Shown here: positions 39,039 through 55,228 of the stretch, piece by piece
How the letters are laid out: each line of letters begins with the position of its first letter
Numbering within the stretch: position 1 is the first letter of the stretch
DNA from: Armatimonadia bacterium
GTDB lineage: Bacteria > Armatimonadota > Zipacnadia > Zipacnadales > UBA11051
Assembly (NCBI GenBank): GCA_039683575.1
Contig: JBDKRC010000196.1
Span: 1 to 64,000, forward strand
Direction of reading: 5' to 3'
DNA: 64,000 nucleotides
The notes under the pieces: model-generated
Seen by the model: the letters and a program-made list of their open reading frames with translations, nothing else
Databases searched by the model: none
What the model was told of the DNA's origin: nothing
Translations under genes and position numbers: made by a program

Positions 39039-40103
39039 CTATGCTTCCGCGTCGATTGCGGCCGAGATGGCCGCCGGGGAGACGGCGCCGCTCGTGTAGA
39101 TGACGAAGATGCGGTACTGATAGGTGTTGGTGCCTGTCAGCAGGTCGTCATCGTTCAAGAAGGTGCGACCGGCACCGACTGAACCGCGGTCGATACGCGT
39201 GAACGAGCCGCCGTTCACCGCCCGCTCGATCCGGTAGCGTTGGACCGTGAGTGTCGTTCCGGTTGGCTCCTGCCAACTCAACCGGATCGTACCGTCCAGG
39301 TCCTGGACGCGTACGTTGGTCACGGGGAGCGCGTTGGGATTGACGCCAGTGTCTCCGCCGCTGTTACCACTGTTGACTGCCACGAGAAGCCCCACCAGAA
39401 GGGCTCCCAGCAGCACGTACTTGTAGCCCTTACTGCCGGTCTTCTTGGCTTTGGCTATCTCAACAACGTCAGCACGACCGGAGAGGGTGGCCGCTGCTTT
39501 TGACGCGGCGTTGCGGATTGCTTCCTGAACCAGGACGGCCTCAGATCCGGTATAACGGGCGCGAGGCGTGCTCGCTCCTGAAACACCGAATGCCCGCAGC
39601 ACCTTCGGCTCAGCTATGGGCTCGTCAGTGGTTGGATTGAGGTTGGCCGCCACATCGTACATCTGCCCCGCCAGGATCAATTCGACCGAGACCGGGTCCG
39701 ACTTGCGTGTGAAGGACTGAATGGTGGACATGACGATGTAGTCGGCGTCAAGGGCATGGCCAATGCTGAGGGCCGTGGCCAGATCGGCGGTCCCTTCCTC
39801 TACATCCACCTGACGGATGCGGCCTTCCCCGACTGCCCGCCTTACGCTGGGCGAAGTGGGCGAGAACTGCAGCGCGTCCATCCCCGGCGTGTCATCGATT
39901 GCCATCGTGAGAGCGCCGAGAGCCCGCTGGCCAGCGTCACTTGGGACGCCCTCGGCAGCCACTGCCACCGGGAACACCAACACGGTCTTGTGGTCTTGCG
40001 CAAAAGCCATGCCTGCCCCAAGCGGCGATACAGTGGCCAGTACTAGCATAGCCAAAGCCAGGCAGATTCTGCGACTCAAGTAGTGCGAACGGATTGCCTT
40101 CAT
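39039..40103 (-). CDS. Exported protein: CsgG/TolB-N-like alpha/beta domain, internal hydrophobic helix, FN3 domain
   Basis: Signal ending AFA-Q; KTVLVFPV..IGHALDADYIVMSTI; YVLLGALLVGLLVAV; IRLSWQEP..YRIER..YQYRI. Confidence 0.7.
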   Translation of the reverse strand: MKAIRSHYLSRRICLALAMLVLATVSPLGAGMAFAQDHKTVLVFPVAVAAEGVPSDAGQRALGALTMAIDDTPGMDALQFSPTSPSVRRAVGEGRIRQVDVEEGTADLATALSIGHALDADYIVMSTIQSFTRKSDPVSVELILAGQMYDVAANLNPTTDEPIAEPKVLRAFGVSGASTPRARYTGSEAVLVQEAIRNAASKAAATLSGRADVVEIAKAKKTGSKGYKYVLLGALLVGLLVAVNSGNSGGDTGVNPNALPVTNVRVQDLDGTIRLSWQEPTGTTLTVQRYRIERAVNGGSFTRIDRGSVGAGRTFLNDDDLLTGTNTYQYRIFVIYTSGAVSPAAISAAIDAEA

Positions 40104-40211
40104 GCTTGTTACTCCCTCCACGGGCGCTGGGCACCAGGCCCATGCGGATCGACACAGACGATTACATCGAACGGCTGAAGCCCTTGTAGCAGCCCAACGC
40201 GACGGCTGCCC

Positions 40212-43073
40212 CTAACGACTAATCTGCAGCGGCTGAACCACAGTGACCGCCTGCCCAGTCTCTTGCGACTTGGCCACGATCTCACAGAGGTACCGGCCGC
40301 TCGGGACCTTGTTTCCGCGGTTGCTGCGACCGCTCCACAGAACGGTATTCTGACCGGCAGTCGAAGCGCGGTTGGCCGCAACCTGCCCGACGACGATCCC
40401 CGATATGTTGCGGATGCGAATGTCAACCGCAGCGTCGGCGCTCAGCGAGTAGCTGATGGCTGCTCCGCCCTGCGCGCTCTGAGTGGCAACCACCGAGCTC
40501 ACCGCGAGGGCATTGGCCCCGCGTGGCTGCACCACGATCCGCAGGGCCCGCTCAGTCGCCTGAGTGCCGGTACGGAAGGTATAGGAGCTCGTGGTGCGCA
40601 TGTAGCGCCGGTCACCGGTAGCCTCGTCGACCAGGGTGGCGATCAGGCTCGACGGCAGCGTCGACAGGTTCGGCCACGTTACAGTCGCAGTGCTGTTTGC
40701 GGCGTTAGTCTTGACGATCAGATTCCATTCCTGCCGCTCCTGGCCCGCGCTGCGCACGTCCATCAGGTATGGCATACCAAGCGCGCTTGAGCCCGAGTAG
40801 AAGGCGGACTTCAGATATACGCTCTCTTGCTTGATGCTTGCGGGCGGCTGAGGCACGTCATAGCGGTCCAGACCAGCCACCGCATTCTTCTTTACCGCCG
40901 CACTCTGAGTCACGAGCGGCAATCCCGAAATGCCCACCTGTACATCGAATTCCCAGCCGTCTTTCTCTGCAGCCTTTGGCTGCGGTGCGCCTGTCTCGGC
41001 CTCGGCCGGACTGTACTGGTTGGGCGGCTGGAACATCAGCGTGCAACTCTGGCGAGCAAGTACCCAGTAGCCCATGTACGGGTCGAGATAGGTATCTGCC
41101 GGCGTTGCTTCCCAGGTGTATTGATTCGTCTCCGGATCGTACGCATAGACGGTGGAAAGCAGCATGTTCCGCGCTACCGCTTCGTCGAGTGACCAGTCGC
41201 CGCCGCTCTGCCCCGCCACGCGTACCTCATCGAGGCGCACGCCAGTGGTAAACGGATTACCAATCTGGTTCCAGCCGGGCAGTAGGTCCACGTTGTACGC
41301 GATCGAGCTATCCACTGGCTCGGCCCCTGCGGGCATGTAGACGGGCTCACGGTTGCGGTTCAGGAGCCAGTAGCCGGCGCCGGGCACGATGGCCGTGACG
41401 TAAGGGTCAGGGAACCAGCGGTACTGATTGCCCTGAGGGTCGTAACGAATGAGCGAGGCAGGACCGCCGGCCAACAACGAGCCAAGGCTCTGGAAGACGG
41501 TTTCAGCATCGTTATCCGGGAACTCGTAGGGTACCGAGACCATCTCCAGACCCAGGTCCGCGTTCGGCAGCGGGTTGAGCACGGGGATAGCCGGGATATT
41601 GATGGTCCGGCTGACGACTTTGCCGCGCGGGCCCGTGAAGCGCACCTCCGCATGCCCGGGGCGAGCCGCTGTAGCGACGACCTTCCAGTCGAGGTTCTTG
41701 ATCTCATTGCGCTGAATGATCCCGGCATTCTTTGCCAGCGATTCTCCGGGCGCCAGCTCCAAGCCCACCGGCAAGCGCACGCGCACGCTTGCATCATACA
41801 GCGGAGAGCTGCCGAAGTTGTCCATGTAGGCTGCCAGCTTGAACGGCGAGTTGCCGTCTTGGTCGACTAGGTCATGCGCCTCATTTTCCGAAGTAGCCGG
41901 GTCGTCCTCACCCGCCTGCAGTGAGTACGGCGCATATGCCATGAAAGCGTATGGGGACGTGTAATCGGCGGCCGATGAGCCGAGCCCATAGTAGGTCACA
42001 TAGCGCCGCGAGAGCCCGGGTCCGAGGTCGCGCGGCTGCCAGGACACTGCATAGGCCCAGTCTTCGTCGATTATCGACGCCTGGGTATTCGGGGTGAAGT
42101 AGTACTGCTGATCGGCGCCCATGTTCCGCATCTGGCCAAAGGAGATGCTATCGGGCGGACCGGCGGCGTAGTTGGCGATGCCGGCGTTGTCAACTTCGCT
42201 GCCGGTAAGCACGCCACGCAATACAACGTTCGGAGCCTGCGCGTTGTCGTAGGCGACCCAGCTATCGGGCAACAACTGATTCGTGCTTCCGACAGAGGGG
42301 ATAGTCGTCTCTGTAGTGATGACGCTCTTGTCGGGGAGGATAATCGCGCGGCCGTCGTACTGGCTCTGCCCGAAGGTAGCGTCTATCAATGTCCGCAGCC
42401 CAACCTGGTGGGTCGCGGAGGTCGTGTTGGTGACGATGTACTCGAACTGAACGGTGTCGCCAAGGACGGTGGTTACCTGCCGAACCTGGATCCAGTCCGT
42501 GACCTCATCCAAATCGGCTTGACTGGCCGGCACGCGGAAGACGCCCGAGACGTCTCGGCTGCCATTGGTCAGGACTGAGGGCCACAGGCTCAGGAGATTG
42601 GAGATTTCCTCAACGAAGCCCAACTCCTCAGCCAGAAAGTGCGGGTCAAAGATGCCACCCACGTCGGGGTCTGCCTCATTGCTGTCCACCGCAATGGAGA
42701 CCTTACTCGTGTAGTAGTAGCCGACGTCATCATCTTCGTATTGGGCGACGTTGCTCGCAATGACCTTATCCTCGTCGTTGGCGTGTGTGGGATTGCCACC
42801 GACAGGACTTTCGGTCGCAGTTCGGATCTGCACCCGGCCAGCTGGCTGGTACATGTAGTCGGTATCGGTAGCCGACACCGCGTTCCTGATCACACCAGGG
42901 TATTCCGCCCGAAGCTTGATCAGGGCGCGCGAAAAGGTGGGCACTTCGGCCGTCGTGAAGTTGGGCGCCAGTCTGGCCTGAGCCCACACAATGCCAAGTG
43001 CCACGGTCGCTAAGGCTAAAGCGCCTACAGTGACGCGTATCGCTGCCGATCTCCGATTACTGTTGCGATCCAA
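40212..43073 (-). CDS. Large exported protein with the shared C-terminal module (FlgD-Ig-like end)
   Basis: AGAGGAG SD, TTG start, signal peptide; GWNQIGNPF, YMRT, ISYSLS..IRNISG..WSGR..PSGRYL. Confidence 0.8.
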   Translation of the reverse strand: MDRNSNRRSAAIRVTVGALALATVALGIVWAQARLAPNFTTAEVPTFSRALIKLRAEYPGVIRNAVSATDTDYMYQPAGRVQIRTATESPVGGNPTHANDEDKVIASNVAQYEDDDVGYYYTSKVSIAVDSNEADPDVGGIFDPHFLAEELGFVEEISNLLSLWPSVLTNGSRDVSGVFRVPASQADLDEVTDWIQVRQVTTVLGDTVQFEYIVTNTTSATHQVGLRTLIDATFGQSQYDGRAIILPDKSVITTETTIPSVGSTNQLLPDSWVAYDNAQAPNVVLRGVLTGSEVDNAGIANYAAGPPDSISFGQMRNMGADQQYYFTPNTQASIIDEDWAYAVSWQPRDLGPGLSRRYVTYYGLGSSAADYTSPYAFMAYAPYSLQAGEDDPATSENEAHDLVDQDGNSPFKLAAYMDNFGSSPLYDASVRVRLPVGLELAPGESLAKNAGIIQRNEIKNLDWKVVATAARPGHAEVRFTGPRGKVVSRTINIPAIPVLNPLPNADLGLEMVSVPYEFPDNDAETVFQSLGSLLAGGPASLIRYDPQGNQYRWFPDPYVTAIVPGAGYWLLNRNREPVYMPAGAEPVDSSIAYNVDLLPGWNQIGNPFTTGVRLDEVRVAGQSGGDWSLDEAVARNMLLSTVYAYDPETNQYTWEATPADTYLDPYMGYWVLARQSCTLMFQPPNQYSPAEAETGAPQPKAAEKDGWEFDVQVGISGLPLVTQSAAVKKNAVAGLDRYDVPQPPASIKQESVYLKSAFYSGSSALGMPYLMDVRSAGQERQEWNLIVKTNAANSTATVTWPNLSTLPSSLIATLVDEATGDRRYMRTTSSYTFRTGTQATERALRIVVQPRGANALAVSSVVATQSAQGGAAISYSLSADAAVDIRIRNISGIVVGQVAANRASTAGQNTVLWSGRSNRGNKVPSGRYLCEIVAKSQETGQAVTVVQPLQISR

Positions 43074-43115
43074 TACTGTCAGCTCCTCTCTACGTCGGAC
43101 GGGGTGCCTGTGCAG

Positions 43116-46100
43116 TTACCGTGTTACCGAGAATGGATGGATTGCCTGTACAGTCTGTCCATCCTCGGCCCGAGCGGTAATGCGGGCGAGATATCTGCCC
43201 GACGGAGCCTTCAAGCCGCGTTCGTTGCAGCCGTTCCAGACTGCGGTCTGACTCGTCCCCGCGGCCACCGAGCGTTCAGCGACTCTGCCGATCAACATAC
43301 CAGAGATGTTGCGAATCTCCACGCTCACGTTCGACTGGCGCGTCACTGAGTAGGTGAACATCACCTGTCCCCCGCGAGCTGATGCCGACGAGACGGAATT
43401 GACCGTCAGCAAAGTGCTCTTCTGGTCCGAGGCCGTGATGCGCAGATGACGCACTCCCGGCTCAGCCATGGTGAACGTGTAACCGGTGGCGGTGCGCATG
43501 TATACGCTGTTCCCACTATCGAGGTCTTCCATTCGCATGCTCAGACCGCGTGGTAGGGACGCGTTCAGACGCGGCCAAGATACGGTGACCGGGACGTCTT
43601 TCAGCCGACACGACACCTCAACATCCCATTCCTGTTTCGTCGAGGCGGCGCTGCGCACATCCTTTGCGAGGGTACCCTCGCTGTTGGGAATGTACATCCG
43701 CAATGCGTCGACCAGCGGCGGCGGCTCGGATACGTCCACCCCAAGGTCATAGCCATCGGTCGCAGCGGCACTGACGCCGATATAGTTGATCGGGTCCTCA
43801 TACTTGCCAGCACGTGCTTGCAGTTGCAGCAACCAGTTGTCTGTGGTGCCTTGCACTGGCTTGGCAGTGGTCTGCCTCTGGCGCGTCGCGACGATCTGTG
43901 CAGTCGTGGAAGTGTTGTGCACGACCAGCGTCGCGTCCTTGCGCACGTGGAGCCAGTAGCCCTTCAACGGCGCAAGCGTGTCTTCAGTCGGGTCGGTCGG
44001 GAAATCGTAGTAGCCGCCGCCTGCGTTGCTGACGAAATCGTAAAGCACACCCTCGGTAACCGGGCTGTTGGTCGAGTCCATCGCCTCACGCAGGTCTTGT
44101 CGTCCGTTGGCACTCACAAACTCGACGCTACCCCAGTCCACGTTGTCCTCATATGGATTCCCAATGAGGTTCCAGCCCTTTGGTTGGTCTGAGCCGTAGA
44201 TGAGCTTGATGTCATAGCTCGCGTCGGTGAGACCGTTGGCAGTCACGCTGAGCATGCCGGTGGTTCGCAGGCTCAGGAAGTAGCCGAGACCTGCAGGCGG
44301 CTTCGCCACGAGGTTGTCGGGCGGGGCGAACCCTGCGAACTCGTCAGGGTACAGGTGGTACTTGCTTGAGCGGCTGTCGGTGGGAACCCATCGCAGCAAG
44401 GACATGTTCTCCAGCGGCACGCCAAAGACCACAGCCGGATCAGCTTCGCTCAGGTCTGGATATGGAAGCGCAATGATGTGTAGCCCTGCTGCGATGCTCG
44501 GGGTGGCAACGCGGAAGTAAACGGTAGCCCCCTTCGAGGGATTGCCCGCCTGGTCAGAGACCATCATGCTGACCTGGTGACGCGTGCGCGTCAGATTCGA
44601 CAAGACAAAGCTTATCTGCCCCGTCTCGTGGTCAACTCGCAGGTCGGTTGCTGGTGAGATTGCCACCAGGTTGGTGCCATCGGTCTTGACAACAGCCTTG
44701 CCGTCATATTTGGCAACAAAGGTGTCCCAGTTGATCTCGCCGCTGTCGGACAGGGTGGCAATCACTCTGGGCGAGGCACTGGTAATGGTGCTGTTGTTCA
44801 GGGGGAAGTCGATGACGATCACCGGCAGGTCGTCGTCCGTCTCCTGGCCTACCCGCAGCGACAGCCGGCCGCCCGCGTACGGCGTGTCATTGCCTTCGTC
44901 AATGTCAGGGAACTCCGTCTGGTACTCGTCGATGGTGTACTTCCTCGCCATGACCTTGAGCAGGCTCTGCAGCGTCGAAGGGGCGCGCGCGGAGTCTTCG
45001 GAGAGAAGCAATGCCACCGCACCGGCCACATGTGGCGCCGCCGCCGAAGTACCCATGAACGGATTTAGGCCATATCCCGCAGCCGCCGCTGCGCCACCAA
45101 TGGTGACCGCATCGGGAGCCAGGATGTCGGGTTTTCCACGTGTCGTGCCCACACCCAGCTTGTACGACGAGAACGGCTCCATATGATCAATCTGGACCGC
45201 CGCCAACTCCGGGGTCGCGGGCGGGGAGACGATGAGATTGGTGCCACGGACTGCGCCAACCGCATACGCACCAGTAGCTTCCGCTGGCACCGCCAAACTC
45301 TCGTCACCGACGCGCAGGTCGCGACTGGCAATATCGAAATTGGGGGAGAAGTACTGCAGTTTGACCGCGGGGATCTCGCTCTCCGCCGGGAGATTCGCGT
45401 TGACGTATTGGATCCGCACTACGTACTGGCCAGCCGTGCGGATGTCAACCCAAAGCTGCTCCTGCGGCGGGTCGTCACCATTCTGGGTCACCGCGGAGCG
45501 AGTGATCTCTCGGGTGCCAGTGCTGTCGAACAGGACAATATCAAAGTCGTTCGCAGTCTCCCCACCGTCGCCCGGCATATACCAGGAGAGATAGACTTGA
45601 AATGCGCCGACCGGGAGGTCATAGCGCAGTTCGTCCGTCGAGCCATCTAGCTCTACGTATGAGTCATCGTCGGTGTTCTCGGCAATGCCGGACCAGTGCT
45701 GCTGAGCCCAGTTCCCTGCAGCGTTGACCCAGAAAATCCCAGCCTCGCGTGCCCGGTTTACGGCCTGTGAGGCCCGGTGTGTCCCATCAAACGGTCCGTC
45801 CGCGAAACCCAGCGACATGACCACTACTTGGACCTGCGTGCTGATCAGGTAGGTCACAGCGCTGTCGATCGAGAGAGCACTGTCAGCGGCCACGAGAGTC
45901 ATGTCACAATCGGGCGCCATGTCGGCGACGATCTGAGCCACTGCCGTTCCGTGTGCGGTCGTGAACGCGTTGTTGTCGGACCGGTAGTTGACTATATCAC
46001 TGGCAACTACGGGAACCTCGGCGTCCAACCCTAAGAAACCCTCGTCAACAACGGCCACTTTCACATTCTGGCCGGTAAAACCATTGAGTTGCATCGACTG

Positions 46101-46547
46101 GGCGTTAGTCATAGTCACGCCCTGCGACACTGTCCCGCCATAGCCTTGCAGAGGGAGCGCTTTGACGGGAGGAGCAATCTGGGCGACCTGCGGTAGCGCG
46201 GCAAGCCGCACGAGTTGATCCGCTGGCACCATCGCCTGCACTTCGCGACCGCCCCGGCGTTCGGTCCTAACGCCATACTGCGACAGATTCGTTGCGGCCG
46301 CACCAGCGGGGCTACGGAAGTAAATGTTGACCCACACGAACTTGCCCTGCATGCGCACGCCAGATTTGGCGGCAGAGGCCGAACTGATTGTACCGCTTTC
46401 CGCACTCAGGGCCAGCGTTCGCAGTGGGCCGGCCAAGTCCGCCAACCCCGCGGGGTCCGCGGCATATAGACTCGCCGTCACGCCGAGCAGGATGATGGTT
46501 AGGCATGCCGCGAGCCGGCTTCGTCCGGTTGATAGTCCAAGGCTCAC
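43116..46547 (-). CDS. Exported subtilisin-like (S8) serine protease with the shared C-terminal module
   Basis: Triad VAVVDEG / HGTAVA / GTSAAAPHVAG, oxyanion NAAGN, KPDILAP; start taken at GTG 46547 after GGAGG. Confidence 0.88.
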   Translation of the reverse strand: MSLGLSTGRSRLAACLTIILLGVTASLYAADPAGLADLAGPLRTLALSAESGTISSASAAKSGVRMQGKFVWVNIYFRSPAGAAATNLSQYGVRTERRGGREVQAMVPADQLVRLAALPQVAQIAPPVKALPLQGYGGTVSQGVTMTNAQSMQLNGFTGQNVKVAVVDEGFLGLDAEVPVVASDIVNYRSDNNAFTTAHGTAVAQIVADMAPDCDMTLVAADSALSIDSAVTYLISTQVQVVVMSLGFADGPFDGTHRASQAVNRAREAGIFWVNAAGNWAQQHWSGIAENTDDDSYVELDGSTDELRYDLPVGAFQVYLSWYMPGDGGETANDFDIVLFDSTGTREITRSAVTQNGDDPPQEQLWVDIRTAGQYVVRIQYVNANLPAESEIPAVKLQYFSPNFDIASRDLRVGDESLAVPAEATGAYAVGAVRGTNLIVSPPATPELAAVQIDHMEPFSSYKLGVGTTRGKPDILAPDAVTIGGAAAAAGYGLNPFMGTSAAAPHVAGAVALLLSEDSARAPSTLQSLLKVMARKYTIDEYQTEFPDIDEGNDTPYAGGRLSLRVGQETDDDLPVIVIDFPLNNSTITSASPRVIATLSDSGEINWDTFVAKYDGKAVVKTDGTNLVAISPATDLRVDHETGQISFVLSNLTRTRHQVSMMVSDQAGNPSKGATVYFRVATPSIAAGLHIIALPYPDLSEADPAVVFGVPLENMSLLRWVPTDSRSSKYHLYPDEFAGFAPPDNLVAKPPAGLGYFLSLRTTGMLSVTANGLTDASYDIKLIYGSDQPKGWNLIGNPYEDNVDWGSVEFVSANGRQDLREAMDSTNSPVTEGVLYDFVSNAGGGYYDFPTDPTEDTLAPLKGYWLHVRKDATLVVHNTSTTAQIVATRQRQTTAKPVQGTTDNWLLQLQARAGKYEDPINYIGVSAAATDGYDLGVDVSEPPPLVDALRMYIPNSEGTLAKDVRSAASTKQEWDVEVSCRLKDVPVTVSWPRLNASLPRGLSMRMEDLDSGNSVYMRTATGYTFTMAEPGVRHLRITASDQKSTLLTVNSVSSASARGGQVMFTYSVTRQSNVSVEIRNISGMLIGRVAERSVAAGTSQTAVWNGCNERGLKAPSGRYLARITARAEDGQTVQAIHPFSVTR

Positions 46548-46623
46548 GTACGTACCTCCTGCCGGCACGCCCGCGCCGGCTACTGTTGTAATGCTTTGTG
46601 GACTGCGATACTGCTTCACGACA

Positions 46624-47766
46624 TTACTCCGTACTACTGGATGGTGCGCCGATCCACATTCCGCTCACTCGTCCCCATGATTCCCGCAGGTACGCTGCCC
46701 AACCCGTGATCGCCGCCAGTTCGAACTCTTTTGCGTATCCGGCCGGCACTTCCTCAACGGTCGGTGGGTAGTAGATCCCCAGGCCCGGGGTTTCCCCGCC
46801 CTGCCCAGCCCCCTGCCATCGCGCCACCACCATATCATCCACCGCCGCTATCACCTGCGCGCTCGCCTGGCTAACCTCTGCATTGGCGGTATTGCCCTGC
46901 AGGCGCGCGGCCAACTCGCGCACGTCACACAACTCGTTCTTCTCGCCCCAGCTTCTGGTACGGCTGCGCACGAATGTCATCGTCGGCGCGAGCTCAACCA
47001 GATGGCTTCGTAGAGCCGCAGTCAGTGTACTGAGCCCCGACGATACCGCTGGTAACCGCTCCAGGTCGAGCGCAAGCAGCGCGACGGGACCGTCACCGGG
47101 CATACCAGCCTCCACCACGTTCCGCGCAACGTCCACTGGCTGTGAGTTGCTGGACGCCAGTGCCTCTGACCAGGCCAGACCAGGGCTGTAGATGAGCCCC
47201 GGAGCGGCGGTGAGGAATCGGCACGTGCCCCGCAACTCATACGCTACTTCGAGACTGCCGCCGAAACACGTGTCGAGCCCAACCAGATCCAGCGGGCATC
47301 CTAGCCCTGCAACGGCCGGCTCCAGTTCCTGTCGCAGCGACCGCGGTGGCAGCCCTGCCGCTCCCTGCGCTCGGAGTAACCCGCTGCCATGCCCCATCAC
47401 CAGCAGGGCATAGTGCTTAGCTGGCAGCGTGTCCAGCGCTGAGGCCACGAAAGATCCCAAAACGCCCTTCACTGAACCCTTGGGTAACGGCGCCTGGTCG
47501 TCGGTTCGAGCCCCGTGGGCCCTTATCAGACAACGCTCAGCCGAATTGCGGTCCACCTGATCTGGCAGCATGATCATCGCCAGATTGTAGCCCTGCTTGC
47601 GAGCTGTATCCGCAAGCTGGCTCTGGTAATGCTGAGCGGCCTCGGTCAAGCCGCCTCGGGCTTCAAGGTACGCCAGTATGGTCCATGCCGGCTGCGCAGA
47701 TGCAAGTCCGTGCACCGCAGCAGCCAGCATGCATAGGGTCAGGATGCAGACGGTGCGGCTGTTTAT
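46624..47766 (-). CDS. Clostripain-family (C11, clan CD) cysteine peptidase
   Basis: WTILAYL, PAKHYALLVMGHGSG (His), DLVGLDTC (Cys), SLEVAYEL, GLGIYYP. The start is uncertain: ATA 47766 gives a full signal peptide; the first ATG is 47730. Confidence 0.8.
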   Translation of the reverse strand: MNSRTVCILTLCMLAAAVHGLASAQPAWTILAYLEARGGLTEAAQHYQSQLADTARKQGYNLAMIMLPDQVDRNSAERCLIRAHGARTDDQAPLPKGSVKGVLGSFVASALDTLPAKHYALLVMGHGSGLLRAQGAAGLPPRSLRQELEPAVAGLGCPLDLVGLDTCFGGSLEVAYELRGTCRFLTAAPGLIYSPGLAWSEALASSNSQPVDVARNVVEAGMPGDGPVALLALDLERLPAVSSGLSTLTAALRSHLVELAPTMTFVRSRTRSWGEKNELCDVRELAARLQGNTANAEVSQASAQVIAAVDDMVVARWQGAGQGGETPGLGIYYPPTVEEVPAGYAKEFELAAITGWAAYLRESWGRVSGMWIGAPSSSTE

Positions 47767-49652
47767 CTTCGGCCCGACCTCCCTGCACCGGTCCAGCCGC
47801 CGTGGCGCGCCGGGATCGGCGTGCGAACCCCTGCACTCGTGGGCGTCGGCGGCGGCGTCAGAGCAGTTGTGAACTTCCGCATCTCGCTGTAGAGGAAGCC
47901 GGACTTGCCGTTGTAGACGGGCCTATGGGGGTCTGCGCTCTGCCGCGCTCCCACCCGCCACCAATAGGTAGTCTCTGCCGACAATGGCCCTCGCAGCACG
48001 GCACTCTGCGGCGTTGAGGTGGTACCAGTCGTGCGGGCAATCGCTGTCCGGAACAGCGGTTCGCTGGTGCCATCTGGATCGCTCTCAGGGAATACTTCAA
48101 CCTGGTATTCATTCGCCCCAACCGTCGACTGCCAGGTGAAGGTGATATCCTCGGTGGTTACGCTCGTAGAGTTGGCAGCCGGCGTGGAGCCAAGTACAGG
48201 CGGCACGAAGAAGGTAACGGGGCCACACGCGGCGCTTGCCTCGCTGATCGCATTCGAGGGATCGACTTCAAGGTTCGGCTCAGGCAGGTCAACCACCTGG
48301 GCGGTGCCGATTGGAGGGTTGGTGCCGGGCGGCTGCAGCGGATCGATGATCCGGCGGACCCGATAGAAGTACCGGCTGCCAGCGACCAATGGATTGTCGA
48401 CGTACGCGTATGTGACGGTGCCCTGGTCGATCTCCCCATCCTCATTGCGGTAGTCGAACTCGAACTCGGTATCGGCGAATTCAGTCGTTAGTGCCTCGTC
48501 GCTGAAAACGCTGAAGCCGGGATCGTTCGTGACGGCTATGATGTTCGTGGCCGAAGTCAGGAAGTTCCTGTTGTTGGTGCCGCGGTAGACTACAAAGCCA
48601 TGGGTTGTCGCGCCCGCGGTCGACCCGGTGTGAATGCGCAGTTCGATGGTCGGTACCGCGCCAGGCGCCTCCTGATTCATGAAGCAGTCTACTGATGAGG
48701 GGCTGGCCGAGGTTGACCCGGTACCGATAGCAGCCACTCCAACAAGCAGCAGAAGCGCTGCCAGCATCTGACTGCCGCGCTTAACCTTCTTGCTTCGTTC
48801 CTCGGCGGCCATCGCACTTACAGGCTTGTAAATACGGTAGATCCGGTCGCCGGTCGTGGGTATGGCGCCCTGAACCGCACGGGCGGTGGACATGCCAGCC
48901 TCGGCGTCCGCGATGCGGATGACGCCGACGCGCCGCATGATTACCTGCTCTACGTCCGGCTGCCATGTCGGCCGCATGACCAGCATGTCATCGCCGCTTG
49001 AGATGCCGTCGTCCGTTCCCAGGTTGATGTTGATATTGCCCTGGTCATCAACCATCTCTACGGCACCGCGGCGCACCGTCGCGCTGAGCATCTGCTCAAC
49101 GCCGGCCTCAGCCGCCTGCCGCATTGCCTCATGCGTGACCTGAGCCACGTCGCCACTGAACCCTGGGATCGGCTTGGTCTGGATGCTTACCGCCGCGCCG
49201 TCCAGGTATTCGCCGATGGCTACGTCGAGCAACTGCAGATGCAGCACCACGCGCGCCTGGCCGTTGCTGGGGTCGACCCGCAGGTCAGCCAGATTGCCCA
49301 CGAGGACTTTCTCAACATGCAGGCGCTGACCTAGTCGCACCTGCTCCGGAGTGGATAGCGGCGGCTTCATCCGCAGCGCCTGCATCTCCCGGTCCAGGTC
49401 CACTGTCGAGGTGACAATGTACTCCTTGCGGTCCTCGAGCGCCAACGCCGCGGCGGCCGTGACCTCGCGCATGAGCGCGGGCGTTGCGCGGTTTGTCAGG
49501 TCCTGGAATGGCACCACGGCTACTGCCGGGACATTCTGGGCGGCTTGGCCAAATGCCGATGGCAAGTACACCAAGCCCTGGGGGGTGAGCATCGCCACCA
49601 TAATGATGTAGGCGACGATGCGACTCACCGAATTTCTGCGTAACTGCTGCAT
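47763..49652 (-). CDS. Exported protein: CsgG/FlgT-like domains, internal hydrophobic helix, FN3-like domains
   Basis: Signal ending AFG-Q; AVAVVPFQD..LGQRLHVEKVLVGNL; FlgT-C-like ININLGTDDGISSGD..VGVIRI..GDRI; MLAALLLLVGVAAIG; YFYRVR, FTWQST..YQVEV..YWWRVGA. Confidence 0.72.
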   Translation of the reverse strand: MQQLRRNSVSRIVAYIIMVAMLTPQGLVYLPSAFGQAAQNVPAVAVVPFQDLTNRATPALMREVTAAAALALEDRKEYIVTSTVDLDREMQALRMKPPLSTPEQVRLGQRLHVEKVLVGNLADLRVDPSNGQARVVLHLQLLDVAIGEYLDGAAVSIQTKPIPGFSGDVAQVTHEAMRQAAEAGVEQMLSATVRRGAVEMVDDQGNININLGTDDGISSGDDMLVMRPTWQPDVEQVIMRRVGVIRIADAEAGMSTARAVQGAIPTTGDRIYRIYKPVSAMAAEERSKKVKRGSQMLAALLLLVGVAAIGTGSTSASPSSVDCFMNQEAPGAVPTIELRIHTGSTAGATTHGFVVYRGTNNRNFLTSATNIIAVTNDPGFSVFSDEALTTEFADTEFEFDYRNEDGEIDQGTVTYAYVDNPLVAGSRYFYRVRRIIDPLQPPGTNPPIGTAQVVDLPEPNLEVDPSNAISEASAACGPVTFFVPPVLGSTPAANSTSVTTEDITFTWQSTVGANEYQVEVFPESDPDGTSEPLFRTAIARTTGTTSTPQSAVLRGPLSAETTYWWRVGARQSADPHRPVYNGKSGFLYSEMRKFTTALTPPPTPTSAGVRTPIPARHGGWTGAGRSGRR

Positions 49653-49763
49653 GGGGTGTGCTCTCCCTCCCACAGTATCTCGGCACGGCAAATGGCACGG
49701 CGACGGCAGTATATCATGCACTTCTTCAACTGTAAACGAGACGCGCGCAGCCCCCAGAGGCGA

Positions 49764-52700
49764 CTACCGCGCACCCTTGTATAGCGGCATAACAGCCCGG
49801 GCTTCCTGCCCGCTGTCGGTGCGGCCGATGATGGTGACCAGGTAACGCCCGTTCGGTGCAGTGTTGCCCCGGGCATCACGGCCGTCCCACAGCAGCGTGT
49901 TCTGGCCGGCGGCCTGGTGCTCACTGTCAGCCAGTTGCCTGATCGTGCGGCCCGCGATGTTGCAGATGACTGATGTCACCTGCGCCGGACGCGACAGCAC
50001 ATAGCTCACTGAGATGGCGCTGCCGTTGGTGGACGCTGCCATCGGGCTGATCGCCAGTTGGCCCAGGCCCTGCGGCGTAACCACGACCTGCAACTCTCGC
50101 TCGGTGTCACTCGCCGTGAACACATAGCTCGAGTTCGTCCGCATATACACCTGCTGCCCCGTCTTCGTGTCCACCAGCAGCGGTCGCACGTCCTTGGGCA
50201 GTTGCGACAGATCCGGCCACCCAACCCGCACCTTCTGCCCCACTTGGTTCGTATAGACCTTCAGTTTCCAGGTGTTCTTCTGGCCCGTCGGGCGAACGTC
50301 TACGCCGTAGTTGCCCGCCGAGTTTGACCAGCCGCTGTTGTCAATGGCCGTGTACACGTAGGCGCCCATGGCAGGAACCGGAGGCTTGGCCTGGTCCAGG
50401 TTGAAGTCGCAGCCCTCGGTGGCGCCAGTCGCGGCTCCCAGGTACGTCGCGGTGTCCGCGGTCCCCGCAACTGCGGTCTTCAGTTGCAGCAGCCACCCAT
50501 TTTCTACGCTCGGCGCATACGACCGCTCTTGCCCCGCTGCCAGCCCGCCGACGCTCTCGGTCAGGATCAGGTAGCATGGCTGATTGGCCTTGAGCCAATA
50601 GCCGGTGTACGGGGACAGCACGCCGACGGTCTGGTATCCGCCCAGTACGTACGCATACAGCCCCGAACCCAGCATTCCTCTCGACAGTGCCTCCTGCAGC
50701 GTGTACACCGACGTACCTGAGCGAACGCTCCCGGTGTAGAAGTCAATCCGGCTCTGGTGCGGGCAGCCGACCAGATTCCAGCCCGCGGAAAGCGGGATCT
50801 CGACGGTGTCCGTAGAGGCAACGCCCTCCACCGACAGGTCCGCCGAGGCCGTCAGGTTCATCCAGTAGCCTGTGCCCAGGCGGAACCGGTCAGCCGGAGC
50901 TTCCGGATACAGCCGGTAGCGCTGCCTCGTGGTCTCCCATGTCGCCATGCGCAGGCTCGAAGAGCTCACACCGAGCATGGTCGCGGGGTCAACATCACTG
51001 TAATCCCACGGGAAGGATACCAACTGCAGGCCCTTGGGGAACGTGTGCAGGGCGTCCATCGTGAAGTTGACGTTGTACGTCGTCGCTCCACTCTCGACAG
51101 TTGCCTGCTGGCTCGTCGGCTGGGCCGTCATCCCGATCTTCTCTGCGACGACGGTCAGTTCCCCGGAAGGCACGTTGTCTACCAGGAAGTTCTGCTCGAT
51201 CCCATTCTCATCTTCCGTGACAACCGTGCTGCTGGTGGTCGTCTGGCCAACCAGCCTGTCGCCGAACATCAGCCGGACCGTCACGCCGCCTATGAAGGCG
51301 CCGGTTCCTGCGCTGACCACGCGGCCGGCCACTTTTCCTGGCGGAGCCGTCTCAAGGGCTATCGGCGGATCAACGTTCAGGGTCGTCGCCGGCTCGACGG
51401 TGACGCTGCGCGGCGTGGAGACGCTGTAGCCGGCCGCTCCCGCCGTTAGCGAATACTGCCGCGGCGGCAGGTTCAGAGTCGCGTCGCCATTCTGATCCGT
51501 GTAGGCCGTGACGGTGGTGCCGGCGCTGTCCACGGCGCTTACGCGAGCGTTCACCACGGCCTTACCGTCAGTTGCCGTGACTACTTTCACGTTCACGCTG
51601 CCGTTCGCGGCATCCAGCCGGAAGTCAAGCGTGGTGGTGTCGCCGACGCGCACCACGGCCTTGGACTGCTTGGACCCGTAGGAAATCTCCGCCCCGTTCG
51701 CCGTCACCAGGTACTCGCCTGGAGGGATGTTGGGCAGCATGTACCGACCGTCTGCGCCGGTGTAAACCGTGGTGGGAAGCTCGTCCTGTGACGGCGGGTT
51801 GTCCATATCCGGATCCGGAACAATCGACACCGCGACACGCGACAGTGGCTCCTTGCTCGTTCGGGACGTCACCGTGCCGGCAATCGCGCCCGGCTTTTCC
51901 TTCTCGATCGTGAAGTCAACCGTTCGCGGTAGCTGTCCACCGTGGACAAACTCGCCCTCGTAGTGGTCAATCGCTGTATAGCCTGGCCGGACTACGTCGA
52001 TGTTGTAACGGCCCGGCGGCAGCCCCTGCACGATGTAGGTACCGTCTTCCTGGCAACGCACGGCGTACTTCACAACATCGGTCCCGGCGGTCGTGGTCAC
52101 GCTCACCCGGACCACAGGTGTCGGGTCATTCACTGCCTGCCCGGCGTCGCTAACCGAGAGCACAGTCCCCTGGAAGCCGCCAGTCCGCGACCAACATGCA
52201 AAGTTGTGAATCAAGTGGCTGCGGTGGTTGCGGCACCGGGACGGGGTAACGTCGTATCCACGATGTATCTGCTCGAGGCCGAAGGATAGGAAAACCACCT
52301 TACCGCCCAGAGTATTCCCCGTATACTCGTATCGCACGCCGACGCAGGGCCCGAAAGCTGTCCCCTCATCGGCGGCGGCGCCATAGATCTTTGTCGACCC
52401 CAGCGGCGTAAGCGAGTCCGGCCGGATGGACCACTGCGCAGCATCCGTGTACCATGGGCTGCTCGGCCGTGTCACGCGTGCTGACTTCAGCGGCAGTGGC
52501 GAATCGTCGCTTGCCGTCCAGTTGGGCCAGTCTCCAGCGTGGGAACCGCCGCCCGCAACCCCCGGGACATTCCATGCGTCGTCCGATACCGGATCGTTCC
52601 CCAGGCCACCCACCCCGAATTCCTGTGCCGTCCGCTCCATGTTGAAGGGGTTAGTGCCGTTTGGCCCAACAGCGCAGTCAGCCAGGAAGCTGACTTGAAG

Positions 52701-54881
52701 TATGTTGGTGACAAAGCTGTTCGACTGCGTGCCATTTAGCGTTAGCGCCCAGACGATGTCCTCGCCACTCATGAACAGACGCCCGCCCTGCCGGACGAAA
52801 TTGCCTACATCGGCCTGAACCGATGCGTCCATGATCGTGCCATCGGCAATCCACACGTTACCCGTGTGAGGGGCGGCCCAGATCACGGCCCGGTCGGCCA
52901 CCGGTACCGCGCGCGTGGCTACAGCATCGGGGTTGGTTGCGCGGGCCGGGTCCAACTGGTACTCGATCGTTGGCAGGTAGTACTGGTAAACGGTCTGAGG
53001 AATCGCCCCACGGCAGATCACGCGCCACACGTCGTACATGCGCGCCGCACTCAAGTTTTGGCTGCCGCCGACGCCGCCCTGAATGGTGTCGTAATCAATG
53101 GTCGATTCGACACCTCCATAAGTACTCGGGTTATACGTGTAGTACGTCTCCACGTGCCAACCCGCGGCATAGTCGTTGTTGTAGCCCTGCCCAAGCGCGT
53201 AGAGATAAGACTGGCCCTCGCAGTAGTCATCCACGAACAGGACGTTGTTGCGGGGCGAAAAAGTGCGCGTCGAGAAACCGTACACGTCGTCGTACGTGAC
53301 ATAGTTCCCGACCTTATCCACCACCATGATGTCGATGATGTAGTCATGCCCACCATTCACGGTCGGCGTCTGCCACGTACCCACGTACTCTCCCGCCGTG
53401 GCATCGTACTGCAGGGGAATCCGTCCCACCGTCTGACTGTCGATCTCCAGCCACCTCTCGCCGCCTTGGAAGCTTGAGTCGTAGTAGTGTCCGGACTCTA
53501 CGTCATAGATCCGGGGAGAGATCTCCGGGTCTTTGAACAGTGCCATAACACTGTAAACGCCGCTGTCACCGTCATAGACCGGAACCGAAACGGTGACCTC
53601 GCCGCCCGGTGACGCCAGCCGCGGGGAGGCTGACGGCAGTTCCGACGTCAGCGTACCATTTTTGAACTTCGCCAGGATCGGCGGAGTGACATCCGACTGC
53701 TGAGTCATCCAGATGTCAGTCAAGCCGCTGCGGTCTGACGTGAACACGATCCGGTACGGTGCCCCGGTCATGTTGAGCGTGAAACTCGGATCGGTGTCGT
53801 TGCTCGACTCTGTGGACACGGGCAGCGTCTGCAAGGGGCTGGAGACTTCGCCCTCGCCCGGCATTCGCAGGATATTCCAGTCCCCGCTCGTGTCGCCGGC
53901 GTCCGCCGCGCGCGTCGAAGCGAAGGCGATGGCATACCCGTACTTGGCATCCTGCGGATCGGTCGGATCGGGCCGGAAGGCCGGCTCCTTGTCGTCCGCC
54001 GTGGCGTCACCGCCACCGTTGCTGATCTGCTCTATCTCCGTCCCATCAGGGGCACAGATGAAAATGCGCTGCACCCCGCCAGCATCGCGAGTGAAAGCCA
54101 GAACTCCGCCAGACGGCGACCACGCCGGATCGGTATCATCAGCCACACCGCTCGTGATCGGCTGGATCAGTTGCGCGCCTGAAGATGCGACCTTGTAGAT
54201 GTCCCAGGTCCCATTCAAGTTGCACTGGAAGGCGATCCAGTTGCTGTCCGGCGACCACGTCGCGTGCAGCTTGTCGCCTGCGCCGAAGGTGATCTGCCGG
54301 ACGATGCTCGGATCCCGAACCTCGACCGTGAAAATCTGCCAGATCCCGTTTACCTGCGAACTGAAGGCCACCAGACGGCCGCCCGGGTCGTATGAAGGAT
54401 CAACCTGGTCGCCGGCCATGCTAAGCAGCTTATACTGCTCGCTGCCGTCCGAGCGCATGATCCACAGATCATCATTGGCATTGGCAGGAGCCGTCGCATC
54501 GATCTGCCCGTCCGCAGTGTCATTCGCGGTGGTGTTGTTGACGGCATCTACGCCGTTGCTCACAAACACGATTCTGTTCTGAGTCGCGCCCGGCGAAGCG
54601 TTCGGCTGCTTCTCGTACGTGGCGACCGCGGTGGGCGTAAGGTCCCTATCCAGGTCAGGACCCGTCTGACGCGTTTGCATCAAGGCTGGAGGCGTGGGCA
54701 GGTTCTGCCCGATGATGGGGCGAGCCGAGGGATTCTTGGTGAAGAGACTGAGGCCATTTACGGGGATGAGAGGACCGGCCGCTCGTTCGGTCCTTGCGGC
54801 CGAGACCGCGGAGGTGAAGAACAGATACAGGAAAAGAGCGAGCAGGATGGGCGCGGAAAACTTGAGGAGGCCCTTCTGCAA
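49764..54881 (-). CDS. Very large exported protein: TolB-like propeller, alpha/beta domain, carboxypeptidase-regulatory-like repeats, shared C-terminal module
   Basis: TTG start after AAGGGAG with a signal peptide; PD40 repeats; VLFVDD..GGRLFMSG..GKVVFLSFG; several G.IAG.V...DG.Y....PPG.Y repeats; GWNLVG, YMRT, FlgD-Ig-like end. Confidence 0.8.
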   Translation of the reverse strand: MQKGLLKFSAPILLALFLYLFFTSAVSAARTERAAGPLIPVNGLSLFTKNPSARPIIGQNLPTPPALMQTRQTGPDLDRDLTPTAVATYEKQPNASPGATQNRIVFVSNGVDAVNNTTANDTADGQIDATAPANANDDLWIMRSDGSEQYKLLSMAGDQVDPSYDPGGRLVAFSSQVNGIWQIFTVEVRDPSIVRQITFGAGDKLHATWSPDSNWIAFQCNLNGTWDIYKVASSGAQLIQPITSGVADDTDPAWSPSGGVLAFTRDAGGVQRIFICAPDGTEIEQISNGGGDATADDKEPAFRPDPTDPQDAKYGYAIAFASTRAADAGDTSGDWNILRMPGEGEVSSPLQTLPVSTESSNDTDPSFTLNMTGAPYRIVFTSDRSGLTDIWMTQQSDVTPPILAKFKNGTLTSELPSASPRLASPGGEVTVSVPVYDGDSGVYSVMALFKDPEISPRIYDVESGHYYDSSFQGGERWLEIDSQTVGRIPLQYDATAGEYVGTWQTPTVNGGHDYIIDIMVVDKVGNYVTYDDVYGFSTRTFSPRNNVLFVDDYCEGQSYLYALGQGYNNDYAAGWHVETYYTYNPSTYGGVESTIDYDTIQGGVGGSQNLSAARMYDVWRVICRGAIPQTVYQYYLPTIEYQLDPARATNPDAVATRAVPVADRAVIWAAPHTGNVWIADGTIMDASVQADVGNFVRQGGRLFMSGEDIVWALTLNGTQSNSFVTNILQVSFLADCAVGPNGTNPFNMERTAQEFGVGGLGNDPVSDDAWNVPGVAGGGSHAGDWPNWTASDDSPLPLKSARVTRPSSPWYTDAAQWSIRPDSLTPLGSTKIYGAAADEGTAFGPCVGVRYEYTGNTLGGKVVFLSFGLEQIHRGYDVTPSRCRNHRSHLIHNFACWSRTGGFQGTVLSVSDAGQAVNDPTPVVRVSVTTTAGTDVVKYAVRCQEDGTYIVQGLPPGRYNIDVVRPGYTAIDHYEGEFVHGGQLPRTVDFTIEKEKPGAIAGTVTSRTSKEPLSRVAVSIVPDPDMDNPPSQDELPTTVYTGADGRYMLPNIPPGEYLVTANGAEISYGSKQSKAVVRVGDTTTLDFRLDAANGSVNVKVVTATDGKAVVNARVSAVDSAGTTVTAYTDQNGDATLNLPPRQYSLTAGAAGYSVSTPRSVTVEPATTLNVDPPIALETAPPGKVAGRVVSAGTGAFIGGVTVRLMFGDRLVGQTTTSSTVVTEDENGIEQNFLVDNVPSGELTVVAEKIGMTAQPTSQQATVESGATTYNVNFTMDALHTFPKGLQLVSFPWDYSDVDPATMLGVSSSSLRMATWETTRQRYRLYPEAPADRFRLGTGYWMNLTASADLSVEGVASTDTVEIPLSAGWNLVGCPHQSRIDFYTGSVRSGTSVYTLQEALSRGMLGSGLYAYVLGGYQTVGVLSPYTGYWLKANQPCYLILTESVGGLAAGQERSYAPSVENGWLLQLKTAVAGTADTATYLGAATGATEGCDFNLDQAKPPVPAMGAYVYTAIDNSGWSNSAGNYGVDVRPTGQKNTWKLKVYTNQVGQKVRVGWPDLSQLPKDVRPLLVDTKTGQQVYMRTNSSYVFTASDTERELQVVVTPQGLGQLAISPMAASTNGSAISVSYVLSRPAQVTSVICNIAGRTIRQLADSEHQAAGQNTLLWDGRDARGNTAPNGRYLVTIIGRTDSGQEARAVMPLYKGAR

Positions 54882-55178
54882 CCGAATCACTCCCTTGGCG
54901 GGTGCTGCAGTGAAGTCTGCCAACAACTGGCGCACGTGGTAAGACGGAAGTCAGTGAGACATGCAGAACCCGCAGGACCGGTACTTCGCCCGCCAGCCAC
55001 ACCACAGAAGAATGCCTGACACACGCGTCACCGTGCCTGATAAACACGCCATCAGGTCTGCGTACGCTTTTCCCAGCTACCTGCTTGCATTGGGCAGCTC
55101 CCTCCCCATCGCCTACCCCTGTGGAGCTCAGAACCGTGTGCAAGAAGTCAATCTGCTCGCTGTTTTACCAGCGGATTC

Positions 55179-55228
55179 ATTATAACACCCGGTATTGGCG
55201 TTGACAAGATGTTGAACCGGATGTTGAA
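55179..55228 (-). promoter_or_regulatory. Promoter of the exported-protein cluster with upstream direct repeats
   Basis: Minus strand TTGTCA(55207-55202)-N17-TATAAT(55184-55179); GATGTTGAA at 55208 and 55220. Confidence 0.6.

Follow-up and report, generated by a model that had tools for sequence, protein, structure and literature searches.

Predicted secreted proteins of an Armatimonadota bacterium share a C-terminal three-domain string ending in a relative of the type IX secretion C-terminal domain

Do three otherwise unrelated proteins that end in the same 430-460 residues carry a cassette which sends them to, or holds them at, the cell surface? The question is raised by a 64,000-nucleotide stretch of DNA (the window) from an Armatimonadia bacterium (GenBank assembly GCA_039683575.1, contig JBDKRC010000196.1, positions 1 to 64,000), in which three genes of one cluster, here called P1, P2 and P3, encode the proteins concerned. 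What these proteins have in common is three distinct domains in a row (D1, D2 and D3), not a single cassette. The answer favoured here, with moderate confidence, is that D3, the last domain, is a portable sorting or anchoring tag, that D1-D2 is an optional adaptor placed before it, and that the genes of the cluster act together.

All three genes lie on the reverse strand, as does every other window feature described below, and coordinates are those of the window. P1 (953 aa, 40212..43073) has about 500 residues matching no Pfam or NCBIfam family, P2 (1167 aa, 43116..46619) a subtilase domain (Peptidase_S8, 68.7 bits) and a PorU-like domain, and P3 (1723 aa, 49764..54935) a PD40/TolB-like propeller (PD40, 54.1 bits) with four CarboxypepD_reg domains; D1-D2-D3 follows in each, and all three proteins plainly have a signal-peptide-like N-terminus. 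The C-terminal 447 (P1), 462 (P2) and 427 (P3) residues align end to end, with BLASTP identities of 33% over 446 aa for P1-P3 (E 2e-57), 29% over 472 aa for P1-P2 (E 2e-48) and 30% over 461 aa for P2-P3 (E 8e-53). These similarities score 162-185 bits against a maximum of 28.1 bits in 50 shuffles of one copy; the other two copies are 31% and 34% identical to that of P1, and 77 of the 479 columns of the three-copy alignment are invariant. The N-terminal parts show no significant mutual similarity (best BLASTP E 0.53). A preliminary description of the window, made from its letters, is thus borne out on the shared region, on its unrelated partners and on the subtilase and TolB-type propeller among them, as well as on the motifs GWN.IGNP, G.GYW (twice), PP, DVR, WP.L..LP, YMRT and GRYL and the endings QISR, SVTR and KGAR. 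The beta-sandwich that it assigned to the N-terminal part of P1 is putative, that part matching nothing in Pfam or NCBIfam. Its placing of the copies at 40212-41555 and 49764-51047 stands, and only the upper bound of the second copy shifts, for reasons of frame, from 44503 to 44504 (43116-44504). P1 has orthologues of identical layout at database loci L033-L040. Residues 607-721 of P2 (44499-44843), directly before D1, match positions 891-1005 of the NCBIfam PorU model (E 9e-11, scored on the whole protein), a part that precedes PorU's own C-terminal domain (CTD).

A structure model of the whole module, built from six copies (mean predicted local distance difference test, pLDDT, 75.7), is all-beta and falls into three blocks, at about residues 1-180 (D1), 198-342 (D2) and 343-447 (D3) of the 447-residue module. 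The roughly 20-residue linker between D1 and D2 (model residues 180-196) has a pLDDT of 38-47, and the D3 region one of about 83-91. The P1 copy consists of a beta-rich D1 of about 180 aa, which holds GWN.IGNP once and G.GYW twice (41016..41555), a linker of low model confidence (40965-41015), a beta-sandwich D2 of about 145 aa with WPDLS.LP and YMRT motifs (40530..40964), and a FlgD_ig-type D3 that ends ...PLQISR-stop (40215..40529). The same parts are found in P2 at 43920..44498 (D1, residues 723-915), 43434..43844 (D2, residues 941-1077) and 43119..43433 (D3, ending ...PFSVTR-stop), and in P3 at 50562..51047 (D1, residues 1302-1463), 50082..50504 (D2, residues 1483-1623) and 49767..50081 (D3, ending ...PLYKGAR-stop). 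Among 130 database homologues the median gap is 21 residues between D1 and D2 and 3 residues between D2 and D3, so that D1 is tethered and D2-D3 is a tight pair.

Pfam and NCBIfam recognise only the last 100 or so residues of the module, as FlgD_ig (PF13860); D1-D2 has no Pfam-A or NCBIfam family in the three window proteins, in four other copies of the same genome or in 43 database homologues. Public names of the homologues are 'hypothetical' or 'FlgD immunoglobulin-like domain containing protein' only, and the ESM Atlas clusters of D1-D2 are labelled 'hypothetical protein' and have no common Pfam family. Folded alone from 53 sequences, D1 gives a confident model (pLDDT 93.2, predicted template modelling score 0.86) for which no solved structural neighbour was found: VIA-align over 48,161 PDB chains reached a best Z of 4.7, with none at Z>=5, and Foldseek a best E of 0.017. 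A sequence profile run against the PDB retrieved only FlgD and PorU, both within D3, and a fold search with the whole 447-residue model returned only generic immunoglobulin (Ig) and FN3 multidomain matches, D3 dominating the list. A match to a characterised catalytic or ligand-binding family, which would have spoken against a targeting role, was looked for by Pfam, NCBIfam, PDB profile and fold searches, and none was found. The idea that D2 is a diverged Big_5 domain (PF13205) was rejected, hhalign giving a probability of 0.4% against the Big_5 domains found before D3 in other ORFs of the genome.

Hidden Markov models (HMMs) of D1, D2 and D3 were run against the six-frame open reading frames (ORFs) of the source metagenome-assembled genome (MAG; 6.23 Mb, 96% complete). 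D3 ends 37 ORFs, 30 of them without D1-D2, and D1 and D2 together occur in only seven, always directly before D3: P1-P3, a pair of adjacent subtilases on contig C144 and a pair of adjacent giant proteins on C238. A Pfam scan placed Big_5 directly before FlgD_ig in 24 of 31 further ORFs. Since this domain is unrelated to D2, D3 is best taken as a shared tail and D1-D2 as one of two units that may precede it. The preliminary view of a single 430-460 aa sorting cassette therefore does not hold; its remark that the region is much longer than a T9SS (type IX secretion system) CTD is right for the total length, which is due to two extra domains before a CTD of ordinary size. Most of the other CTD ORFs of the genome also pass the PF13860 cut-off. 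Their cargo comprises S8, M6, C11 and C14 peptidases, beta-helix/Disaggr_assoc, PD40, NHL and cadherin-like domains, and a signal-peptide-like N-terminus was seen in 31 of the 33 5'-complete ones (two of the 31 weak) by a simple heuristic of our own. Of the genome's 32 complete D3 copies, 27 have Arg and 2 have Lys as the last residue, the typical ending being ...PLQ(V/L/I)R-stop, and the domain stops 0-3 residues from the stop codon in 28. D1 stands alone at the C-terminus of one further ORF.

Some of these loci deserve separate mention. One module subtilase (C144:8109-11528, reverse strand, of genome G000; loci L004/L128) has an in-frame TGA inside D3 in place of a conserved Gly (LWN*RNDNG against LWDGR..RG); read through, the frame ends ...GLSFRR, and the locus is either a pseudogene or a sequencing error. 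Big_5-FlgD_ig proteins of the same genome form tandem arrays, four on C275, three on C79 and two each on C171 and C159 (L114, L116, L118, L119, L122, L123, L125, L126, L130, L131, L136). The near-identity of their tails (...GTYLVRVEAKGAEGTQTTAV..LQ(V/I)R) points to recent duplication. A second C11 peptidase (C111:722-3631, reverse strand; L132; 167.5 bits) combines an InhA-like MAM domain with Big_5 and D3; here, as in PorU, a clan CD peptidase itself bears the CTD.

Beyond this genome, searching 1.84 billion cluster representatives with a profile restricted to D1-D2 gave 17,831 matches at E<=1e-3, 7,787 at E<=1e-10 and 1,335 at E<=1e-30. Layouts were inspected in the best 150 of the 17,831, and the module was C-terminal in all 150: 130 have D1-D2-D3 with D3 last, one has the same with additional D2 copies, 14 have D1-D2 followed by a second D1, and five, mostly fragments, have D1-D2 only. 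D3 is thus the last domain in 131 of these 150, with 0-3 residues after it in 116 of the 131 and an Arg end in 112. Portability is also seen here, as the preliminary description had supposed: the 43 matches scanned with Pfam carry S8, M6, C11 and C39-like peptidases, FG-GAP/ASPIC, beta-helix, PD40 and PQQ propellers, and Glucodextran_B or CarboxypepD_reg arrays. The 14 D1-D2-D1 proteins (P0050, P0070, P0073, P0081, P0088, P0095, P0103, P0116, P0125, P0132, P0133, P0135, P0138 and P0152 among the matches) have no FlgD_ig tail, often have Glucodextran_B upstream, and show endings such as ...DC.(V/I)ILKK. Because such variants exist, D1 may itself serve as a terminal domain; D1-only loci were also seen in a wider profile search of contigs.

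That contig search used the three-copy alignment of the full module and is biased to sequences retaining GWN.IGNP and GYW; taxon labels of MAG contigs are given as deposited. The closest copies (56-40% identity) belong to Armatimonadota or Armatimonadia MAGs, followed by Fimbriimonadales, Chthonomonadaceae and Ca. Thermosaccharophagus, also Armatimonadota. More distant ones come from Cytophagia, Ohtaekwangia, Cyclobacteriaceae, Marivirga atlantica, Ignavibacteria, Caldithrix, KSB1, Latescibacterota, Eisenbacteria and Krumholzibacteriota. Within the phylum, D1-D2 was found at E<=1e-10 in 269 of 301 sampled genomes and in 224 of the 238 of high quality (at most seven candidates scored per genome), with 0/15 genomes in family f29 and 14/27 in f11. 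A full D1-D2-D3 with an Armatimonadota-type ending (...VPVNVIR) is present in a MAG labelled Methyloversatilis discipulorum (L089, CALRVI020000001.1), possibly through mis-binning or gene transfer.

What kind of domain is D3? It exceeds the PF13860 cut-off (27 bits) in all three window copies (34.7 bits in P1, 29.9 in P2 and 38.5 in P3), a sequence profile matches solved FlgD chains (7eh9, E 2.4e-8), and its modelled fold resembles Bacillus Vpr (8jmw, residues 701-802; Z 13.4, root-mean-square deviation (rmsd) 2.4 over 98 residues, 24% identity), the CTD of PorU (6za2; Z 11.1, rmsd 2.4 over 95 residues) and FlgD (3osv; Z 9.2, rmsd 1.6 over 74 residues). Foldseek aligned 215 columns to the Vpr chain. 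The FlgD-Ig-like character read from the sequence at the outset is therefore upheld. Comparison of the genome's own CTDs by hhalign with those from the Fibrobacterota-Chlorobiota-Bacteroidota (FCB) phyla gave probabilities of 98.6-98.9% and E-values of about 1e-16 (9e-16 for 98.6%), the alignment ending before the last strand. In FCB copies this strand has the form ..KKMVLVK or ..RKMLLVK, in Armatimonadota copies the form ..VRPLVVTR or ..TATVSR (..P-L-x-V-x-R). When the last 120 residues of each complete copy were scanned with TIGR04183, the T9SS type A model Por_Secre_tail, its cut-off (23 bits) was reached by 25 of 28 copies from FCB-type phyla and by 2 of 24 from Armatimonadota (23.9 and 24.2 bits). 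P2 scores 18 bits against this model as a whole protein and gives no match at E<=0.001 on its last 120 residues, and the best NCBIfam matches of Armatimonadota D3 are FlgD models, not Por_Secre_tail. Judged by sequence profiles and modelled folds, D3 is a homologue of the T9SS type A CTD but a distinct subtype. D1-D2 itself is coupled to true T9SS CTDs in Bacteroidota, Ignavibacteria, Calditrichota-like and related MAGs; the Marivirga protein has D1-D2 followed by a type A CTD that reaches 31.8 bits with TIGR04183.

The available text of Abby et al. 2016 (PMC4793230) and of a 2022 review (PMC11611037) describes a CTD of 60-100 aa as the outer-membrane export signal of T9SS and the system as restricted to Bacteroidetes; a literature search of limited coverage found no paper on CTD proteins in Armatimonadota. 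Parts of T9SS were sought with family models, the search covering SprA, PorV, GldM and PorU and leaving out GldK, GldL and GldN. The positive control, Marivirga, scored 2386.9 bits for SprA, 453.6 for PorV and 382.4 for GldM. The outcome in Armatimonadota was negative, as detailed below, with a single weak PorV match in the phylum sample. The SprA model also gave weak matches (up to 45.5 bits) in ORFs of about 900-1200 aa in 86 of 151 phylum genomes; these are confined to model positions of about 586-692 and reflect a shared domain some 100 aa long rather than a homologue of SprA.

A role that needs a free C-terminus is argued for by four points: D3 is strictly terminal, its Arg is conserved, it is homologous to the CTDs of T9SS, and D1-D2 is coupled to true T9SS CTDs in other phyla. 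A simple label of T9SS cargo is disfavoured because the machinery was not found and the TIGR04183 test failed. In the proposed mechanism, Sec would carry the CTD proteins across the inner membrane, and an envelope machinery other than the known T9SS would recognise D3 by its free, Arg-ended last strand and bring the protein to, or hold it at, the cell surface. D1-D2 would be a membrane-proximal adaptor or stalk, with D2 packed directly on D3 and D1 hanging on a flexible linker, and would probably bind an envelope component; this is favoured because D2 and D3 are tightly coupled, D1 is tethered, and the Gly/Trp/Asn/Pro motifs of D1 are conserved. P1, P2, P3 and their cluster neighbours would probably act together at the envelope.

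Several points weigh against this proposal. TIGR04183 stays below its cut-off in 3/3 window copies and 22/24 Armatimonadota copies. SprA, PorV and GldM are not over their cut-offs in the source genome (96% complete), and each is over its cut-off in 0/151 sampled phylum genomes; PorU is not over its cut-off in the source genome either, in a search made without a positive control. Such CTDs have a single known reader, and with that pathway missing D3 may do something else. Its best structural neighbour is the terminal 'assembly domain' region of Vpr, and Bacillus has no outer membrane. A full module with an Armatimonadota-type ending (...GRLAILR) also occurs in a MAG labelled Bacillota (L064, JAAYGR010000119.1), possibly again by mis-binning or gene transfer. 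Export, cleavage and anchoring of D3 proteins are predictions from sequence, and a binding partner of D1-D2, if there is one, is purely putative.

The main rival takes up these points: D1, D2 and D3 would be ordinary extracellular accessory domains (stalk, substrate-binding or self-assembly) with no sorting role, the proteins would be secreted by another route such as type II or stay periplasmic, and D3 would act structurally, like the fibril-building C-terminal assembly domains of Vpr. It accords with the Vpr fold match, with a Vpr figure legend that names an 'assembly domain I' and an 'assembly domain II', both C-terminal (PMC10657474), with the T9SS parts not found in the sampled phylum genomes, and with FlgD models being the top matches of Armatimonadota D3; it does not account for D3 being the very last domain in every complete case, with a terminal Arg in about 85%, or for the tie between D1-D2 and true T9SS CTDs in other phyla. 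On balance it is unlikely, though it deserves serious consideration.

P1-P3 and the genes around them form a one-strand cluster in the order P3, mem652, C11 peptidase, P2, P1, mem360, barrel649, with gaps of 42, 32, 4, 42, 90 and 105 bp, flanked by rpsA/polA and uvrB/uvrC. A promoter-like site (TTGTCA-17-TATAAT, 55179..55207) with 11/12 consensus positions and a TG extension lies about 245 bp upstream of P3; it is a consensus match only, the total of such sites being not above that in shuffles. Synteny is conserved, as P2-P1-mem360-barrel in L033-L040 and as P3-mem652-C11-P2 in L043. The product of mem652 (652 aa, 47763..49721; a 42% identical orthologue in L043) starts with a signal-like segment, contains a hydrophobic helix and ends in an FN3-like part, and mem360 (360 aa, 39039..40121; orthologues in L033-L040) follows the same plan; in both a domain of about 180-300 aa without a family is followed by a strongly hydrophobic helix after Lys/Arg and then by one or more FN3-like domains. 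The cluster peptidase (368 aa, 46624..47730) matches Peptidase_C11, the clostripain family, at 46 bits against a cut-off of 25.8, and has GHGSG and DTCFGG motifs that presumably hold the catalytic His/Cys dyad. Its N-terminus is weakly signal-like, and an upstream start that would give a better signal peptide was rejected for want of a canonical start codon. Of 41 genomes of the class, 29 have a homologue, and in at least 20 of the 29 its direct neighbours on the contig are module genes of the P2 or P3 kind.

The last cluster gene, barrel649 (649 aa, 36984..38933), encodes a signal peptide, a Big_1/Invasin_D3-like domain near the N-terminus and a C-terminal part rich in Tyr, Gly and Trp. An ESM Atlas feature search places it near OstA/LptD_N clusters (score 0.97). 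The Pfam LptD model (PF04453) has no match anywhere in the source genome at E<=1, and an assignment to LptD was rejected after hhalign against E. coli K-12 LptD gave a probability of 0.8%, so that only the Atlas lead remains; barrel649 could be a very divergent LptD of this phylum or a different protein. Because the seven module genes of the genome sit in adjacent groups of three, two and two, binding between P1 and P2 was also tried: a complex prediction with both modules (orthologue alignment per chain) scored 0.00 against a mark of 0.32, which gives no answer either way.

Two bolder proposals build on this cluster. That Armatimonadota, a phylum distant from Bacteroidota, run an undescribed CTD-dependent route of surface sorting, in which an Arg-ended sister of the T9SS CTD would be read by an envelope machinery that includes the cluster, with the C11 peptidase as PorU-like sortase and D1, as a putative new fold, for docking, is improbable. 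The second is quite doubtful: a cryptic attachment pathway independent of T9SS, in which the cluster C11 peptidase would be a PorU-like sortase that cuts off D3 and attaches the cargo to the envelope, and the OstA/LptD-like protein and the two membrane proteins would form a platform where D1-D2 docks. The conserved seven-gene cluster with C11 between P3/mem652 and P2 across several families speaks for it, as do the C11 peptidase of L132 with its own D3 (PorU likewise carries a CTD), the PorU-model match in P2 and the Atlas resemblance of barrel649; yet a single such cluster would have to serve 37 CTD ORFs, the C11 query matched only 29/41 genomes of the class, the N-terminus of the peptidase is weakly signal-like, the likeness to LptD failed in hhalign, and gene adjacency is not function. 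Finally, that the whole 430-460 aa form a single obligate sorting or anchoring cassette needing all three parts is highly improbable: the D1-D2-D3 order in 130/150 best matches and in all seven copies of the genome, and the spread of the unit over several phyla, are outweighed by the 30 further ORFs that end in D3 without D1-D2, by D1 alone at some C-termini, by the 14/150 best matches that end in a second D1 and by the flexible linker of D1.

CTD-type tails are a hallmark of type IX secretion, which the available text of PMC4793230 and PMC11611037 holds to be confined to Bacteroidetes. Here a CTD that is homologous to these, yet distinct and Arg-ended, closes dozens of secreted proteins per genome in a phylum in which no T9SS translocon, shuttle or motor was detected among the parts sought. 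Either these tails do a non-sorting job or there is an export or attachment route of another kind, and both outcomes would change the annotation of such tails. D1-D2 is very common (over 17,000 clusters at 50% identity) and has no family model; with the pair defined, many large surface proteins could be better annotated.

The system can be set beside five known ones. Like the T9SS type A CTD (TIGR04183 Por_Secre_tail / PF18962), D3 is a beta-sandwich of about 100 aa (70-100 aa being the usual range) at the extreme C-terminus of signal-peptide proteins with varied cargo, and its last strand ends in a basic residue; unlike it, D3 in Armatimonadota mostly falls below the TIGR04183 cut-off, has another last strand and occurs in a host without detected translocon parts. 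A further mark of the T9SS type is removal of the CTD following export, the cargo then being attached to anionic LPS or set free. With FlgD_ig (PF13860) D3 shares a score over the cut-off and the FlgD-like Ig fold, but D3 proteins are not flagellar, and the domain ends large secreted multidomain proteins with a conserved terminal Arg. Vpr (8jmw) is, as P2 is, a subtilase with C-terminal beta-sandwich domains, but it is without D1, its host has no outer membrane, and fibril formation is a feature of Vpr, D3 proteins being known from sequence. The Big_5-FlgD_ig tails of the same genome share D3, the terminal ...LQ(V/L/I)R and the kinds of cargo with the D1-D2-D3 proteins and differ in having a single Big_5 Ig domain in place of D1-D2. 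PorU, PorV and PorZ form the attachment complex of the Porphyromonas gingivalis T9SS; the Armatimonadota cluster differs from it in that its peptidase is C11 rather than C25 and that no PorV or PorU is over cut-off, and the likeness, which is one of gene content only, is that in both a clan CD cysteine peptidase goes together with a CTD-bearing propeller protein and an outer-membrane protein.

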